A stretch of DNA of 64,000 nt from Candidatus Bathyarchaeota archaeon (lineage in GTDB: Archaea; Thermoproteota; Bathyarchaeia; 40CM-2-53-6; RBG-13-38-9). The notes under the pieces are model-generated. The model ran no database searches and was not told where the DNA came from. It was given only the letters and a program-made list of their open reading frames with translations. Both the position numbers and the translations under genes were made by a program. Below, one piece after another: positions 20,297 through 29,426 of the stretch. The DNA is taken from the NCBI GenBank assembly GCA_963807605.1, contig CAWECG010000004.1, positions 480,001-544,000 on the forward strand. Direction: 5' to 3'. Position 1 is the stretch's first letter. The number at the start of each line of letters is the position of its first letter.

Positions 20297-21641
20297 GTGA
20301 ACTTACCCACCCCTGAAGGGTGTGGGCTTCTCCCCTTGCGGATAGAGAAGTTCCTGCTTCAGCGACGAAACATGCCCACTAATAATAGTGGGCACAGGCT
20401 TCATTTCCACAGGCGTGCATTCGGATGGTTCCCACCCTATTCTTTCCAGTCCTAAACGCCTTATATTGAGTGATGCATTGAAGTCTCTATCAATCTTTAG
20501 TCCACAATGGGGACACTTGTGTATCCTCACTGCAAGAGGTTTAGGAACCTTAGCGCCACATCCGCTGCAATCCTGGCTGGTGTTCTGGGGTGGTACTTGG
20601 ATTCGTAGTTTACAGGCGGTTTCAGCCTTGTACCCTACCATCATTCCAAATCTTCCCCATGAAGCATCAGCCATATTCTTGGCATTAGGGATCTCCTGCA
20701 TCAAATCCTGAATATTCAGATCTTCCATGCAGATTACATCGTGTTTGTCAACGTAGTATCTTGAGAGTTTGTGTAAGAAGTCATTTCTGCAATTTGTTAT
20801 GTCCTCATGGATTGATGCAACCTTGACCTTCTGCTTCATCCTGTTTCTTGATTCCTTCTTCTTTCTTGATAGTCGCCTCTGCTCTCTTTGGAGTCTCTTC
20901 AGTTTTTTGTTGATGTTATGTGGATGAGGGGTCACTCTTCCATTAGAATCGTAGGCATAGTTTACTATGCCACATCTATCCCAACAGTTTTGCTATTGTC
21001 CGCTGGCTCAGTATTTATCGGATGGTCGTATTCAATGGAGGTTATTGCATACCAATTGTTGTTTGCAGAATGTTTTATGATAACCTGTTTGATCTCACCA
21101 TCAATCTCTCTATGCAGTCTGACTGGAATTTCTCCTATCTTGCTGAGGTGGAGTAATCCCATCTGTCGTATCTGCTTGGCACCATGCTTGATTAAGAATC
21201 CAGATTGGTTGTAGATGAAGGCCTTGAACCATCCACGTCCCTTGAATCTTAGCCTCCCAACCTTCCTGCCTTTCTTCTTCATCTGTGAGAGTGCCCTGAG
21301 ATTAGAGTACAGCTGGTAGAGGACGTATTGCCGTGTCTTTGAGTGTAGCTTCTCAAGCTCAGGCTTGTATTTGCATAGGGCAGGGATCATCTCTTGTAGA
21401 AGTATCCTGTCTGGCGTCTTTACACTGCACCTAACTATTCCCAAGAAGTAGTTGTAGAGCCACCGGCAAAGCTCAAGGATTGCAGACATCTCCTCCTCTT
21501 GTTCCCTTGTTGGGTAAAGCCTATAGCGCACTGAAGACTGCATTGTACTCACTATATTTTTTGTAAACTCCGCTTATAATGCTGATACCAGTTCGCTTTC
21601 ATCCCACCCCTAAAGGGTGGGGGATTTCCCGCTCACCTTTT
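20297..21641 (-). mobile_element. TnpB-only IS200/IS605 element, family C copy 1
   Basis: After TTAA (21642-21645, minus). Right end GAAG-hairpin-TAAGTTCAC. Confidence 0.93.
20303..21552 (-). pseudogene. tnpB: tnpB (family C) with 1-bp deletion in the RuvC-I motif near 20972
   Basis: GATGTGGCATAG here versus GATGTTGGCATAG in the two intact copies. Confidence 0.9.
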
Positions 21642-21783
21642 TTAATGCTTAGTGCACGATGATCGGTCCTGCAGCGGTTAAGTCTGTCTCCGCGCAGGCA
21701 AGACCAGTCATATGGCGGGAGCCAAATACCGGATGTGCGAAGAAGATATCTATTTGAACATGGGAACAGTGGTTGAGTAGACT

Positions 21784-23563: not shown

Positions 23564-24905
23564 GTGAACTTACCCACCCCTAAAGGGTGTGGGCTTCTCC
23601 CCTTGCGGATAGAGAAGTTCCTGCTTCAGCGACGAAGCATACCCACCAATGGTGGGTAGAGGCTTCATCTCCACAGGCGTGTATTCGGATGGTTCCCACC
23701 CTATTCTTTCCAGTCCTAGACGCCTTATATTGAGTGATGCATTGAAGTCCCTATCAATATTTAGCCCACAATGGGGGCACTTGTGTATCCTCACTGCAAG
23801 AGTCTTAGGAACCTTAGCGCCACATCCACTGCAATCCTGGCTGGTGTTCTGGGATGGTACTTGGATTCGTAGTTTACAGGCGGTTTCAGCCTTGTACCCT
23901 ACCATCATTCCAAATCTTCCCCATGAAGCATCAGCCATATTCTTGGCATTAGGGATCCCCTGCATCAAATCCTGAATATTCAGATCTTCCATGCAGATTA
24001 CATCGTGTTTGTCAACGTGGTATCTTGAGAGTTTGTGCAGGAAGTCATTCCTGCAGTTTGTTATGTCCTCATGGATTGATGCAACCTTGACCTTCTGCTT
24101 CATCCTGTTTCTTGATCCCTTCTTCTTTCTTGATAGCTGCCTTTGCTCTCTTTGGAGTCTCTTCAGTTTTTTGTCGATGTTATGCGGATGAGGGGTCACT
24201 CTTCCATTAGAATCGTAGGCATAGTTTACTATGCCAACATCTACCCCAACAGTTTTGCTTCTGTCCGCTGGCTCAGTATTTATCGGATGGTCATATTCAA
24301 TGGAGGTTATTGCATACCAATTGTTGTTTGCAGAATGTTTGATGATAACCTGTTTGATCTCACCATCAATCTCTCTATGCAGTCTGACTGGAATTTCTCC
24401 TATCTTGCTGAGGTGGAGTAATCCCATCTGTCGTATCTGCTTGGCACCATGCTTGATTGAGAATCCAGATTGGTTGTAGATGAAGGCCTTGAACCATCCA
24501 CGTCCCTTGAATCTTAGCCTCCCAACCTTCCTGCCTTTCTTCTTCATCTGTGAGAGTGCCCTGAGATTGGAGTACAGTTGGTAGAGGACGTATTGCCGTG
24601 TCTTTGAGTGTAGCTTCTCAAGCTCAGGCTTGTATCTGCATAGGGCAGGGATCATCTCTTGTAGAAGTTTCCTGTTTGGCACCTTTACACTGTACCTAAC
24701 TATTCCCAAGAAGTAGTTGTAGAGCCACCGGCAAAGCTCAAGGATTGCAGACATCTCCTCCTCTTGTTCCCTTGTTGGGTAAAGCCTATAGCGTACTGAA
24801 GACTGCATTGTACTCACTAAGTTTTTTGTAAACTCCGCTTATAATGCTGATACCAGTTCGCTTTCATCCCACCCCTAAAGGGTATGGGATTTCCCGCTCA
24901 CCTTT
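23564..24905 (-). mobile_element. TnpB-only IS200/IS605 element, family C copy 2
   Basis: Same ends as the other C copies; TTAA at 24906-24909. Confidence 0.93.
23570..24817 (-). CDS. tnpB: TnpB (family C), intact
   Basis: GVDVG, ICMEDL, DRDFNAS, CSGCG/CPHCG. Confidence 0.96.
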   Translation of the reverse strand: MSTMQSSVRYRLYPTREQEEEMSAILELCRWLYNYFLGIVRYSVKVPNRKLLQEMIPALCRYKPELEKLHSKTRQYVLYQLYSNLRALSQMKKKGRKVGRLRFKGRGWFKAFIYNQSGFSIKHGAKQIRQMGLLHLSKIGEIPVRLHREIDGEIKQVIIKHSANNNWYAITSIEYDHPINTEPADRSKTVGVDVGIVNYAYDSNGRVTPHPHNIDKKLKRLQREQRQLSRKKKGSRNRMKQKVKVASIHEDITNCRNDFLHKLSRYHVDKHDVICMEDLNIQDLMQGIPNAKNMADASWGRFGMMVGYKAETACKLRIQVPSQNTSQDCSGCGAKVPKTLAVRIHKCPHCGLNIDRDFNASLNIRRLGLERIGWEPSEYTPVEMKPLPTIGGYASSLKQELLYPQGEKPTPFRGG

Positions 24906-24922
24906 TTAATTTGACCGGCAAG

Positions 24923-25728: not shown

Positions 25729-26961
25729 TTAGTCTGCATGAGACTTTCTTTGATGTGCAACTCTCTCTATCAGCTCGGCGGCGGTGTTTACTGGATCGAG
25801 CTTGAGAGCAAGGTTACCTAAGCTCTCTGCCTTCTGTCTGTACTCGCTTGAGTTGAGAATCGTAGTCAGACATCTCAAAAGACTTTCATCGTTCAACGCT
25901 CTCTGATCCAGCATAACGGCTACGCCAAGTTGTACAGCTCTCTTTGCGTTTCCATATTGTTCTGTATGGTCCGGAGTCGGGATGAGTATGAGAGGTTTGC
26001 TGAAGGCAACAGTCTTTGTGACTATTCCATGTCCTGACCTGCTTATGACGACATCAGCCGCTTTGAGCAGTTTGAAGTGTGTCTGGTCGTCCACCCATTT
26101 ATAACTGCGGACATTCTTCGTAATAGTTGGTATGGTGCTTCCTTTTGGATTCCCGCGAGATATTATGAACTCGTAGTCTTCAGGCATCGTTTGAAATAGG
26201 TCAAAGATGGCTTTAGCCAAGTACTGCCTTTCCACCCTTGGCCCACTTACTGCTGCGTAAACTATGGGGAGTCCTGTTGCAAGAGATAACTCCTTGATTA
26301 TCGCGTCTCTGGTGGGAAGATCTTGAGGAGATCTGTTGACAATAGGCCCAAGATACCGCACCTTGCTTCTGTATCTGCTAGGGATTGCCAGATTCTCTAG
26401 AGATATCGTATTAGGATATGGGAAATCTGGAATGAGTATGAGCTTGCTCTGCGCCCAGACGCCGCCTATAATGGTCCTGACGAAGATCCAAAAGACATTC
26501 GCCTCAAAGAAGAATAACCTATCCATAAGGGATTGCTTTCCGACGCTTGGTTTGCGAACAATTTCCACTCTGAACTGATTTAGCATCAACACTACCGGGA
26601 TTCCTAGGAGTCTTGCAGCGACTATTGACGAAGCGCGTGAGTCAGAGAAAACGACATCTGGCTTGAACATCTTCATGTTTCTAATCTCGACTCTCACCTG
26701 TTTCAGAAATCTCCGAAGACCTAACGAGAGGCCACTCCTAGCTGCTGTCTGTTTGAAGTCGACGGTGCCGTCGCTCTGAACTCTGAATCCGATAGACACA
26801 CTCTCTACAAGCTTGAATCCTCTTGCCTTACCATATGCCAAGCCGTCAAGATAAGTAGAGAATACAGCTTGTGCCCCTCTTGACAGAAGTTCTTCAACTA
26901 TCGGTGTCGTTCTGGTAATGTGTCCCAGACCTATCCCAGAGGGCGAAACATATACCCTCAT
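25729..26961 (-). CDS. GT-B glycosyltransferase (MurG/GT28-like)
   Basis: GIGLGHITR, ISRSGHG, HTEQYGNA. True ATG overlaps the upstream stop (TGATG). Confidence 0.9.
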   Translation of the reverse strand: MRVYVSPSGIGLGHITRTTPIVEELLSRGAQAVFSTYLDGLAYGKARGFKLVESVSIGFRVQSDGTVDFKQTAARSGLSLGLRRFLKQVRVEIRNMKMFKPDVVFSDSRASSIVAARLLGIPVVLMLNQFRVEIVRKPSVGKQSLMDRLFFFEANVFWIFVRTIIGGVWAQSKLILIPDFPYPNTISLENLAIPSRYRSKVRYLGPIVNRSPQDLPTRDAIIKELSLATGLPIVYAAVSGPRVERQYLAKAIFDLFQTMPEDYEFIISRGNPKGSTIPTITKNVRSYKWVDDQTHFKLLKAADVVISRSGHGIVTKTVAFSKPLILIPTPDHTEQYGNAKRAVQLGVAVMLDQRALNDESLLRCLTTILNSSEYRQKAESLGNLALKLDPVNTAAELIERVAHQRKSHAD

Positions 26962-27593
26962 CACTGATGCGACTCTTGGTGTACCCTCTCTACAAGACCT
27001 TTGGGCTCTCTCTCCTTGAAGACGGCTGCTTGGAACTTGAGAACTTCCGTGCCCTTCAGAAGCCACTCATCCGGCGGCAAACCCGCTTTGAGGCAGCAAT
27101 TAGTTAGAAACTCCTGACTATCCCATCCCCATTCCGGTGCAACTTGCGGGAGTAGCAAGCCCCGGCACGCGCCTTTACTTACTATAAGCCCATCCACACC
27201 TACAACCACGTGATTCGGGAGGTCTTCAGGTTTCACTCTAATCTCTTCGGGAGTCGTCAAAACACTAACTTCCACAACAAGATCTCTTTCGAGTTCCTCC
27301 AATGTTACCGGATTGAATCTTGGGTCGCCAGTTGCGGCCTCTATCGCTGACAGTATTGTTGCCTTTACAAGTTGCTCGGTTGGAGTAGGGAAACCTATGC
27401 ATCCTCTCAGCTCGTCAGACACATGATTTGTCAGTGTCACAAAGACTCCACGTTTCTGTGTGAGGTCTTCGGGGGTATCTGGGGGCGGAGTGAGTATCTT
27501 CTTTTCCGACAAGTATTTGGAGATCGCTTCTCTTGAGAGGGCCACTAGAAATCTTCCTTCTTCTACACTTAGGTGGTCCGTGAACTTACCCAC
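26961..27593 (-). CDS. AMMECR1-family protein; 5' end displaced by IS, first codons IS-derived
   Basis: GVFVTL, LRGCIG, DPRF, GLLLPQV, CLKAG. Confidence 0.93.
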   Translation of the reverse strand: MGKFTDHLSVEEGRFLVALSREAISKYLSEKKILTPPPDTPEDLTQKRGVFVTLTNHVSDELRGCIGFPTPTEQLVKATILSAIEAATGDPRFNPVTLEELERDLVVEVSVLTTPEEIRVKPEDLPNHVVVGVDGLIVSKGACRGLLLPQVAPEWGWDSQEFLTNCCLKAGLPPDEWLLKGTEVLKFQAAVFKEREPKGLVERVHQESHQ

Positions 27594-28925
27594 CCCTGAA
27601 GGGTGTGGGCTTCTCCCCTTGCGGATAGAGAAGTTCCTGCTTCAGCGACGAAGCATGCCCACTAATAATAGTGGGCACAGGCTTCATTTCCACAGGCGTG
27701 CATTCGGATGGTTCCCACCCTATTCTTTCCAGTCCTAAACGCCTTATATTGAGTGATGCATTGAAGTCTCTATCAATCTTTAGTCCACAATGGGGACACT
27801 TGTGTATCCTCACTGCAAGAGGTTTAGGAACCTTAGCGCCACATCCACTGCAATCCTGGCTGGTGTTCTGGGGTGGTACTTGGATTCGTAGTTTACAGGC
27901 GGTTTCAGCCTTGTACCCTACCATCATTCCAAATCTTCCCCATGAAGCATCAGCCATATTCTTGGCATTAGGGATCTCCTGCATCAAATCCTGAATATTC
28001 AGATCTTCCATGCAGATTACATCGTGTTTGTCAACGTGGTATCTTGAGAGTTTGTGCAGGAAGTCATTCCTGCAGTTTGTTATGTCCTCATGGATTGATG
28101 CAACCTTGACCTTCTGCTTCATCCTGTTTCTTGATCCCTTCTTCTTTCTTGATAGCTGCCTTTGCTCTCTTTGGAGTCTCTTCAGTTTTTTGTCGATGTT
28201 ATGCGGATGAGGGGTCACTCTTCCATTAGAATCGTAGGCATAGTTTACTATGCCAACATCTACCCCAACAGTTTTGCTTCTGTCCGCTGGCTCAGTATTT
28301 ATCGGATGGTCATATTCAATGGAGGTTATTGCATACCAATTGTTGTTTGCAGAATGTTTGATGATAACCTGTTTGATCTCACCATCAATCTCTCTATGCA
28401 GTCTGACTGGAATTTCTCCTATCTTGCTGAGGTGGAGTAATCCCATCTGTCGTATCTGCTTGGCACCATGCTTGATTGAGAATCCAGATTGGTTGTAGAT
28501 GAAGGCCTTGAACCATCCACGTCCCTTGAATCTTAGCCTCCCAACCTTCCTGCCTTTCTTCTTCATCTGTGAGAGTGCCCTGAGATTAGAGTACAGTTGG
28601 TAGAGGACGTATTGCCGTGTCTTTGAGTGTAGCTTCTCAAGCTCAGGCTTGTATCTGCATAGGGCAGGGATCATCTCTTGTAGAAGTATCCTGTCTGGCG
28701 TCTTTACACTACACCTAACTATTCCCAAGAAGTAGTTGTAGAGCCACCGGCAAAGCTCAAGGATTGCAGACATCTCCTCCTCTTGTTCCCTTGTTGGGTA
28801 AAGCCTATAGCGCACTGAAGACTGCATTGTACTCACTATATTTTTTGTAAACTCCGCTTATAATGCTGATACCAGTTCGCTTTCATCCCACCCCTAAAGG
28901 GTGGGGGATTTCCCGCTCACCTTTT
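27580..28925 (-). mobile_element. TnpB-only IS200/IS605 element, family C copy 3, inside AMMECR1 codon 9
   Basis: TTAA at 28926-28929. Removing the element restores the host reading frame. Confidence 0.94.
27586..28836 (-). CDS. tnpB: TnpB (family C), intact
   Basis: Same motifs as 23570-24817. Confidence 0.96.
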   Translation of the reverse strand: MSTMQSSVRYRLYPTREQEEEMSAILELCRWLYNYFLGIVRCSVKTPDRILLQEMIPALCRYKPELEKLHSKTRQYVLYQLYSNLRALSQMKKKGRKVGRLRFKGRGWFKAFIYNQSGFSIKHGAKQIRQMGLLHLSKIGEIPVRLHREIDGEIKQVIIKHSANNNWYAITSIEYDHPINTEPADRSKTVGVDVGIVNYAYDSNGRVTPHPHNIDKKLKRLQREQRQLSRKKKGSRNRMKQKVKVASIHEDITNCRNDFLHKLSRYHVDKHDVICMEDLNIQDLMQEIPNAKNMADASWGRFGMMVGYKAETACKLRIQVPPQNTSQDCSGCGAKVPKPLAVRIHKCPHCGLKIDRDFNASLNIRRLGLERIGWEPSECTPVEMKPVPTIISGHASSLKQELLYPQGEKPTPFRGG

Positions 28926-28958
28926 TTAAGATTGGATGGCGCTTTTCTCAATATGAAT

Positions 28959-29426
28959 TCACTCCCTAGCTTTCTCTAAGGTCTCCTTTATCTTTCTCCA
29001 GTGGCTTCCTCTCCAGTAGACCTTTGAGCAAGAGGAGCTTGTACATATCCAGAACCTCTTGTATGTTTGATATGTTCGTTTTGGAATCTTGCCTTCAACC
29101 GAGTCTTTTGCCACACGAGCTAAGATTGACCCACATGTTGGGCATCTTGACCGCATTTGGTTGAAAATCAAAGGAAGCTTCAGTTTCTTAGATAGTCTCG
29201 ACAGGGACTGAACAGTTGAGGTCTCCTTTACAAGTACAGCCTTCACGCCTCTTCTCTTAGCCAATCTGAAAAGCTCCACGTCGGCTGTCAAAAGGATCCT
29301 TTCCTCAACCATTGATCTGCGGATCAGTTCGGTATCGTCCTTGACTGGTGCGTACTCAACATCGTAACCTAGAAGCCGCAACCATCTCGAAATGTTTCCG
29401 AGCATTCCATTCGCAAGAAACTTCAC
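28959..29426 (-). CDS. Mut7-C (PIN-like) RNase domain protein
   Basis: KFLANGMLG..WLRLLGYD, RCPTCG, KVYWRGSHW. GTG start overlaps the pyrC stop. Confidence 0.9.
   Translation of the reverse strand: MKFLANGMLGNISRWLRLLGYDVEYAPVKDDTELIRRSMVEERILLTADVELFRLAKRRGVKAVLVKETSTVQSLSRLSKKLKLPLIFNQMRSRCPTCGSILARVAKDSVEGKIPKRTYQTYKRFWICTSSSCSKVYWRGSHWRKIKETLEKARE

Follow-up and report, generated by a model that had tools for sequence, protein, structure and literature searches.

A TnpB-only insertion sequence in codon 9 of a Bathyarchaeia AMMECR1 gene carries a GTG codon in frame with the interrupted gene

Can a conserved gene still be translated after a transposon has cut off its ribosome-binding site, its start codon and its first eight codons? 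This question is raised by a 64,000-nucleotide stretch (hereafter the window) of a Bathyarchaeia metagenome-assembled genome (2.65 Mb, 5 contigs), in which a TnpB-only insertion sequence (IS) interrupts an AMMECR1 gene close to its 5′ end. An earlier note on this DNA had proposed that the right end of the element supplies a replacement start codon, coupled to translation of tnpB, which rescues both AMMECR1 and the glycosyltransferase (GT) gene downstream. Near its tip the element does carry a GTG that shares the reading frame of the remaining AMMECR1 sequence, whose domain is intact. Our reading of the sequence, held tentatively and with slightly less than even confidence, is that some AMMECR1 protein with the new N-terminus MGKFT may be made by coupling to tnpB, the interrupted gene being a fortuitous allele of reduced function rather than a null. 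Positions are window coordinates unless a contig (C1 to C5) is stated, and the whole locus lies on the minus strand.

Insertion site and empty alleles

The insertion involves the following features.

27580..28925, minus strand: TnpB-only IS200/IS605-type (IS1341-group) element, 1346 bp, no target duplication (nine copies, exact empty sites)
28926..28951, minus strand: orphaned native AMMECR1 5′ end, comprising TTG 28951, codons 1-8 and two bases of codon 9
28959..28965, minus strand: native AMMECR1 Shine-Dalgarno (SD) sequence GGAGTGA, including the stop TGA of the upstream Mut7-C gene, 7 nt 5′ of the TTG
28883..28951, minus strand: 22-codon hybrid mini open reading frame (ORF; MRKAPSNLKKGEREIPHPLGVG*), running from the native TTG into the IS left end, as read from the sequence

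The element lies in sense orientation between TTAA and GGAC in AMMECR1 codon 9 and ends in TCAC, the orphaned 5′ end of the gene terminating in the TTAA target (28929-28926). Nine full copies were found in the genome, with 94.5-100% identity and the common ends AAAAGGTGAGCGGG... and ...GGGGTGGGTAAGTTCAC; the TTAA flank is clear in six of the nine. Three metagenome contigs of related strains contain the exact empty site. A soil-metagenome contig (~97% identity in the flanks) joins 27579 to 28926, unambiguously skipping exactly 1346 bases, and in two Joint Genome Institute (JGI) contigs from a related population AMMECR1 is uninterrupted, with the window flanks tiling base for base at TTAA|GGAC. 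The protein of the JGI empty allele (P0001) is 214 aa long with 91% identity, and its TTG start was called by JGI at the position of the native start. A TTG start is also found in the closest genomic ortholog, which reads ..PNSRLKDELSLEEG where the joined flanks read ..PSNLKDHLSVEEG. The 16S 3′ end of the host is ...GGATCACCTCCT. Because the ends of the nine copies, the junction in the soil contig and the JGI tiling agree, the insertion in codon 9, the native TTG start and the TTAA/TCAC boundaries are established. The earlier note had arrived at each of these from the letters of the window, and its SD (GGAGTGA, 28965-28959), its TTG at 28951 and its joined N-terminus MRKAPSNL-K-DHLSVEEG all hold in the sequence.

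Nine near-identical copies could have led to a repeat mis-assembly that placed the IS at AMMECR1, or the insertion could be a minority variant, and the occupied site is seen in the host assembly only. However, both junctions are exact at TTAA with no base lost or duplicated, the difference from the empty sites is precisely 1346 bp, and the genome is assembled in 5 contigs. An artefact or minority variant is therefore considered very improbable, the least probable of the explanations discussed here.

The GTG codon and the hybrid reading frame

The right end of the element, where tnpB and the remainder of AMMECR1 meet, contains the following.

27591..27593, minus strand: candidate replacement start GTG in the AMMECR1 frame (GTG GGT AAG TTC AC|G)
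26961..27593, minus strand: hybrid AMMECR1 ORF, 210 aa (MGKFT + DHLSVEEG...), its first 14 nt from the IS
27586..28836, minus strand: tnpB, intact, 416 codons (Pfam and sequence)
27588..27610, minus strand: right-end hairpin (GCCCACACCC UUCA GGGGUGGGU), its 3′ arm holding the GTG (predicted fold, -15.4 kcal/mol)

The GTG at 27593 is 14 nt from the IS tip and five bases before the tnpB stop (TAA, 27588-27586). It was predicted from the letters to overlap the end of tnpB in frame with AMMECR1, and this is borne out by an 8-nt overlap that includes the TAA, GTGGGTAA. A TGA closes the AMMECR1 frame 17 codons upstream, and no other ATG, GTG or TTG lies between it and the GTG. The whole domain is retained from this codon onwards, as the earlier note had also claimed: the hybrid ORF matches Pfam AMMECR1 (PF01871, 1.9e-52) over profile positions 1-168 of 168, and in the alignment LRGCIG, LLPQV and other conserved columns are intact. 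What the insertion replaced (MRKAPSNLK by MGKFT) is a stretch that varies in length and sequence among orthologs, whose N-termini had been put forward as a check. Moreover, the stretch ahead of the position equivalent to Ser9 is only 7 residues long in the PDB homolog 1VAJ (1.9e-62) and only 2 residues long in 1ZQ7. Since the replaced stretch is variable and the solved homologs are equally short at the N-terminus, the hybrid protein should fold. An exact look-up of the 210-aa hybrid protein returned no record.

A second GTG lies further inside the gene.

27543..27545, minus strand: alternative internal GTG (Val17), with AGGAAG 7 nt upstream; GTC in the related empty allele

Translation could begin here independently of tnpB translation, at the cost of 16 residues. 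The SD-like AGGAAG is well spaced from this codon, and the Pfam profile starts at residue 17. However, a protein begun at Val17 would lose the conserved LSVEEGRFL segment (LS.EEG..L), which is kept in every ortholog and in the solved homologs. The related empty allele has GTC in place of this codon, which is therefore not a conserved start. It is also 41 nt past the tnpB stop, too far for reinitiation (PMC10666635). Expression from the internal GTG is thus regarded as quite improbable.

A possible route of translational coupling

Whether the GTG at 27593 could be used depends on the transcript that carries it and on the translational habits of the host. The features concerned are listed below.

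28959..29426, minus strand: Mut7-C RNase-domain gene, upstream operon member (Pfam PF01927, 1.1e-39)
25729..26961, minus strand: family-28-like GT gene (Pfam PF04101)
27560..27579, minus strand: putative omegaRNA guide (GGACCACCTAAGTGTAGAAG), placed from established TnpB biology (PMC10278001) and the IS boundary

The native junctions of this operon are overlapping stops and starts. The Mut7-C start overlaps the dihydroorotase stop as GTGA, and the AMMECR1 stop shares 1 nt with the ATG of the GT gene (TGATG), an identical 1-nt overlap being called in the JGI contig L068. Across the genome 108 co-directional ORF pairs overlap by 4 nt (45 as ATGA, 42 as TTGA and 21 as GTGA); with more than half of these having TTG or GTG starts, non-ATG reinitiation looks routine in this archaeon. 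The 8-nt overlap of the GTG with the tnpB stop (-8) belongs to the stop/start overlaps (-1, -4 and -8) by which termination-reinitiation pairs are recognised, and such overlaps have been counted as compatible with this process (PMC10666635, PMC6728339). Coupling of AMMECR1 to tnpB is therefore plausible, being geometrically sound and in keeping with the gene-coupling habits of the host, although the fit itself is within easy reach of chance.

TnpB makes its omegaRNA from its own mRNA (PMC10278001). As the guide sits in the flank, transcripts must extend past the tip of the element; the putative guide bases coincide with codons 5-12 of the hybrid ORF, that is, with the first 20 nt of the remaining AMMECR1 coding sequence (CDS). 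The sense strand from 29540 to 25700 (3.8 kb) contains zero runs of five or more T, which is at most permissive for one shared transcript.

Read-through transcription, reinitiation and the function of the protein are what we infer beyond the anatomy, and the sequence of events would be as follows. A recently moved TnpB-only element entered the single TTAA of AMMECR1 in sense, cutting off the native SD, the TTG and eight codons, and by a lucky phase the GTG of its right-end hairpin fell into the reading frame of what remained of AMMECR1. Transcription, begun at the tnpB promoter or in the upstream operon, would continue out of the element. Ribosomes reaching the end of tnpB would open the hairpin and terminate at the TAA, and a fraction of them would reinitiate at the GTG to give MGKFT-AMMECR1. 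The TGATG junction would then hand ribosomes on to the GT gene. Output of AMMECR1 would in this way be tied to tnpB translation, in competition with the binding of TnpB to the same RNA as its guide.

Chance, recency and the case for a knock-out

Several observations weigh against coupling, and most of these are also what would be expected of a plain knock-out, i.e. a recent insertion, not yet purged, with no meaningful AMMECR1 product, a polar effect on the GT gene and an in-frame GTG by coincidence. All nine copies have the GTG, which falls within both the right-end hairpin and the final codons of TnpB (..RGG*); being common to all, it was not acquired for the AMMECR1 site. The empty-site AMMECR1 gene has one TTAA only. 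For an element entering this gene, position and phase were thus forced, and what is left to chance is the orientation (1/2) and the phase match (1/3). Moreover, private substitutions are fewer in the AMMECR1 copy than in any other member of the family, with just one over 1346 nt, which makes this copy the most recent; selection may not yet have acted, so that the intact ORF is uninformative. The occupied site was not found in a second sample, and the related strains seen carry the empty site.

The context of the codon is likewise unfavourable. The GTG is held in the 3′ arm of the hairpin (-15.4 kcal/mol), and it is 19 nt back to the closest GGAG, leaving no well-spaced SD; the codon would thus be usable only by a ribosome arriving through tnpB. 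Overlaps of -8 are at background level in the genome (5 pairs including tnpB/AMMECR1, against 108 at -4), and the idea that they form a favoured class here was rejected. They are also reported to be less efficient than overlaps of -4 or -1 (PMC10666635). In addition, TnpB cuts its own mRNA and binds a scaffold that covers the GTG (PMC10278001), and TnpB binding and 5′ processing of the shared RNA would compete with AMMECR1 translation.

The element belongs to family C, and one proposed check was whether intragenic insertions of this family favour the GTG frame. Exact-pattern scans for the right end retrieved 4 metagenome contigs and 1 Bathyarchaeia genome contig, representing 3 distinct further sites. 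With these, the GTG frame is used at none of the 11 other family sites (8 genomic, 3 public), staying open for ≤30 codons, although so few sites are too small a sample for a frame test within the family.

Set against a knock-out are the conservation of the gene and the rarity of such insertions. AMMECR1 is single-copy in the host genome and present in 22 of 22 good-quality relatives, and the gene order Mut7-C, AMMECR1, GT is kept in 19 relatives (to order level) as well as in the two JGI contigs. The insertion is part of the assembly consensus. Otherwise the family keeps out of gene interiors: the genome has 6384 TTAA sites, 51% of them inside long ORFs, and none of the nine family copies lies in a gene interior. 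The two intragenic copies are both at gene tips, one in AMMECR1 and the other in a cofC-like gene. Compared with the empty-site strain, AMMECR1 shows 11 synonymous and 4 non-synonymous substitutions, the latter at variable columns. This pattern would also speak against a null allele, but the substitutions are not datable to the time after insertion and most of them probably predate it. Weighing both sides, we give the plain knock-out a substantial but clearly minority share of belief. Under either account, we take the fit of the GTG frame to be fortuitous rather than something that the element has evolved.

Where the host genome differs from the three metagenome strains, a stretch of 28 nt in AMMECR1 (27177-27204) holds five of the changes, four of them synonymous and one a Ser/Gly exchange. 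This clustering suggests that a short tract was recombined, rather than that the mutations arose independently.

The copy in the cofC-like gene, which lies beyond the window (C4:560569-561914; L005:1502-2847), is inserted at TTAA 15 codons before the stop (PF01983, 8.2e-38), in the same codon phase as in AMMECR1. The cofC-like gene gains a new 14-residue tail and a stop from the left end of the element.

Start codons at the ends of other TnpB elements

A broader possibility is that right-end start codons are an adaptation that lowers the cost of insertion by systematic rescue. The genome contains 39 TnpB genes, ~28 of which lie within one 240-kb stretch of C4 (480000-720000) that includes the window. 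All three main IS families end in a start codon near the tip (GTG..TTCAC, GTGTCAA and ATGTCAC). Thirteen of the 37 typed elements lie ≤100 nt upstream of a co-oriented long ORF, and in seven of these the ORF is in frame with the right-end start, the frame being open in five. One of the family-B copies (C5:60350-61678; L043:350-1678) has split the SD (AGGA|AGG) belonging to a nucleotidyl-transferase gene. The likely native TTG follows 11 nt further on, and the right-end ATG of the element (ATG TCA C|) precedes this TTG in frame by four codons.

However, the genome-wide frame test (7/13) is not significant (p = 0.10), which also counts against an active role for the GTG at AMMECR1. In three of the five open cases the native start is further downstream; the element sits in the leader, where the frame merely stays open. 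A GT2 gene on C1 was tried as a case of an IS-split start replaced by a right-end ATG and was rejected, as ortholog N-termini put the native start ~70 nt downstream. A thymidylyltransferase-like gene and an amidase, each 3′ of a family-A copy, were also rejected, the open frame being a leader as judged on their own sequence only. Furthermore, the right-end start codons have a part in the hairpin and in the C-terminus of TnpB as well. An evolved property therefore seems improbable, marginally less so than use of the internal GTG. Among the TnpB elements of the genome, AMMECR1 is the only true interruption of a CDS near its 5′ end.

A bolder form of the coupling idea is that TnpB-only transposons routinely soften their insertions, the hairpin start codon relaunching host genes that are hit near the 5′ end. 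We consider this unlikely. If it were true, a single RNA would combine the roles of tnpB messenger, guide-RNA precursor and host messenger, and the output of the host gene would read out the balance between tnpB translation and assembly of the TnpB ribonucleoprotein.

Comparison with known systems

In its anatomy the element resembles other members of the IS1341 group (relatives of ISDra2 and IS608; Halobacterium tnpB with sense-overlapping RNAs, PMC4615843), which likewise have a single tnpB with helix-turn-helix (HTH), RuvC and zinc-finger parts. Here, TnpB contains an HTH (PF12323, 4.6e-11), an OrfB_IS605/RuvC domain (PF01385, 1.8e-23) and a Cas12f1-like TNB zinc finger (PF07282, 3.7e-20), with the D-E-D and CxxC motifs readable (GVDVG, MEDL, DRDFNAS). 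Further points of likeness are a subterminal hairpin at each end, integration 3′ of a tetranucleotide that leaves no duplication, a tnpB 3′ end that runs into the right end so that the guide scaffold overlaps the ORF, and Y1 transposases elsewhere in the genome. The left-end hairpin is as follows.

28887..28905, minus strand: left-end subterminal hairpin (CCCCACCC TTT/A GGGGTGGG; predicted fold, -15.2 kcal/mol centroid)

Both hairpins are G+C-rich and related in sequence, the right-end hairpin is kept in all nine genomic copies, and the ends are without terminal inverted repeats. The element has no transposase gene; other parts of the genome contain four Y1 transposase matches (PF01797), of which two fall in long open frames. 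The 3′ region of the element is predicted to be structured (z = -3.25). An Rfam search of 26900-29100 gave only noise-level matches, with no intron and no match to an omegaRNA model. The element itself is thus no different from the IS1341 group. What is unusual is its place in codon 9 of a conserved single-copy gene, together with a GTG in the frame of the host gene.

IStrons (IS605/IS607 elements with a group I intron, PMC10690162) offer a parallel to the proposed restart. They too are TnpB transposons in host genes with built-in damage limitation, and there too the damage-limiting route conflicts with guide-RNA production from the same transcript. In contrast, IStrons splice, whereas the AMMECR1 element lacks an intron and the proposed restart would give a new N-terminus. 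With known termination-reinitiation pairs (PMC6728339, PMC10666635) the tnpB/AMMECR1 pair shares co-directional genes, a phase-1 overlap (-8 nt) and a GTG start. It differs in having been made by transposition, in falling in the weakest of the three overlap classes and in having its start in a strong hairpin.

ISs drive neighbouring genes via outward or hybrid promoters, and ribosomes restart at nearby AUG, GUG or UUG codons after premature stops. What would set the AMMECR1 element apart from promoter-donating ISs is that it gives a start codon coupled to its own ORF. In the literature searched, no TnpB element is described as the donor of a start codon. A working restart would permit splicing-free, low-cost residence of RNA-guided transposons in conserved genes, complementing the intron route of IStrons, and would link expression of a host gene to tnpB translation and omegaRNA biogenesis on one transcript. 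It would also bear on the persistence of high-copy TnpB in compact archaeal genomes and on the annotation of 'interrupted' genes. As it stands, the locus offers a clean record of an insertion for which the exact empty site is available as a reference, and it is a good test case for metatranscriptome, proteome and reporter assays, with (M)GKFTDHLSVEEGR as the peptide expected from a restart.

Further copies of the family

No more than 8 kb away from the AMMECR1 copy are two more members of the family, at 23564-24907 and 20297-21645. One of the two is directly 3′ of the HAD hydrolase gene with which the operon closes, and the copy at 20297-21645 has a disrupted tnpB (229-aa open frame). Solo 39-nt matches to the left end of the family were found at C3:1145595-1145642, C1:598463-598501 and C4:611779-611817. 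The left-end match on C3 is overlapped by one to the right end, and this site looks like a collapsed, terminal-only remnant. In the family-C copy at C5:67145-68489, one nucleotide has been lost close to the 3′ end of tnpB; the tnpB frame consequently continues across the right end as far as a flanking TGA, which overlaps a TTG. This copy lies ~35 nt upstream of an NAD-dependent epimerase/RmlD-like gene.

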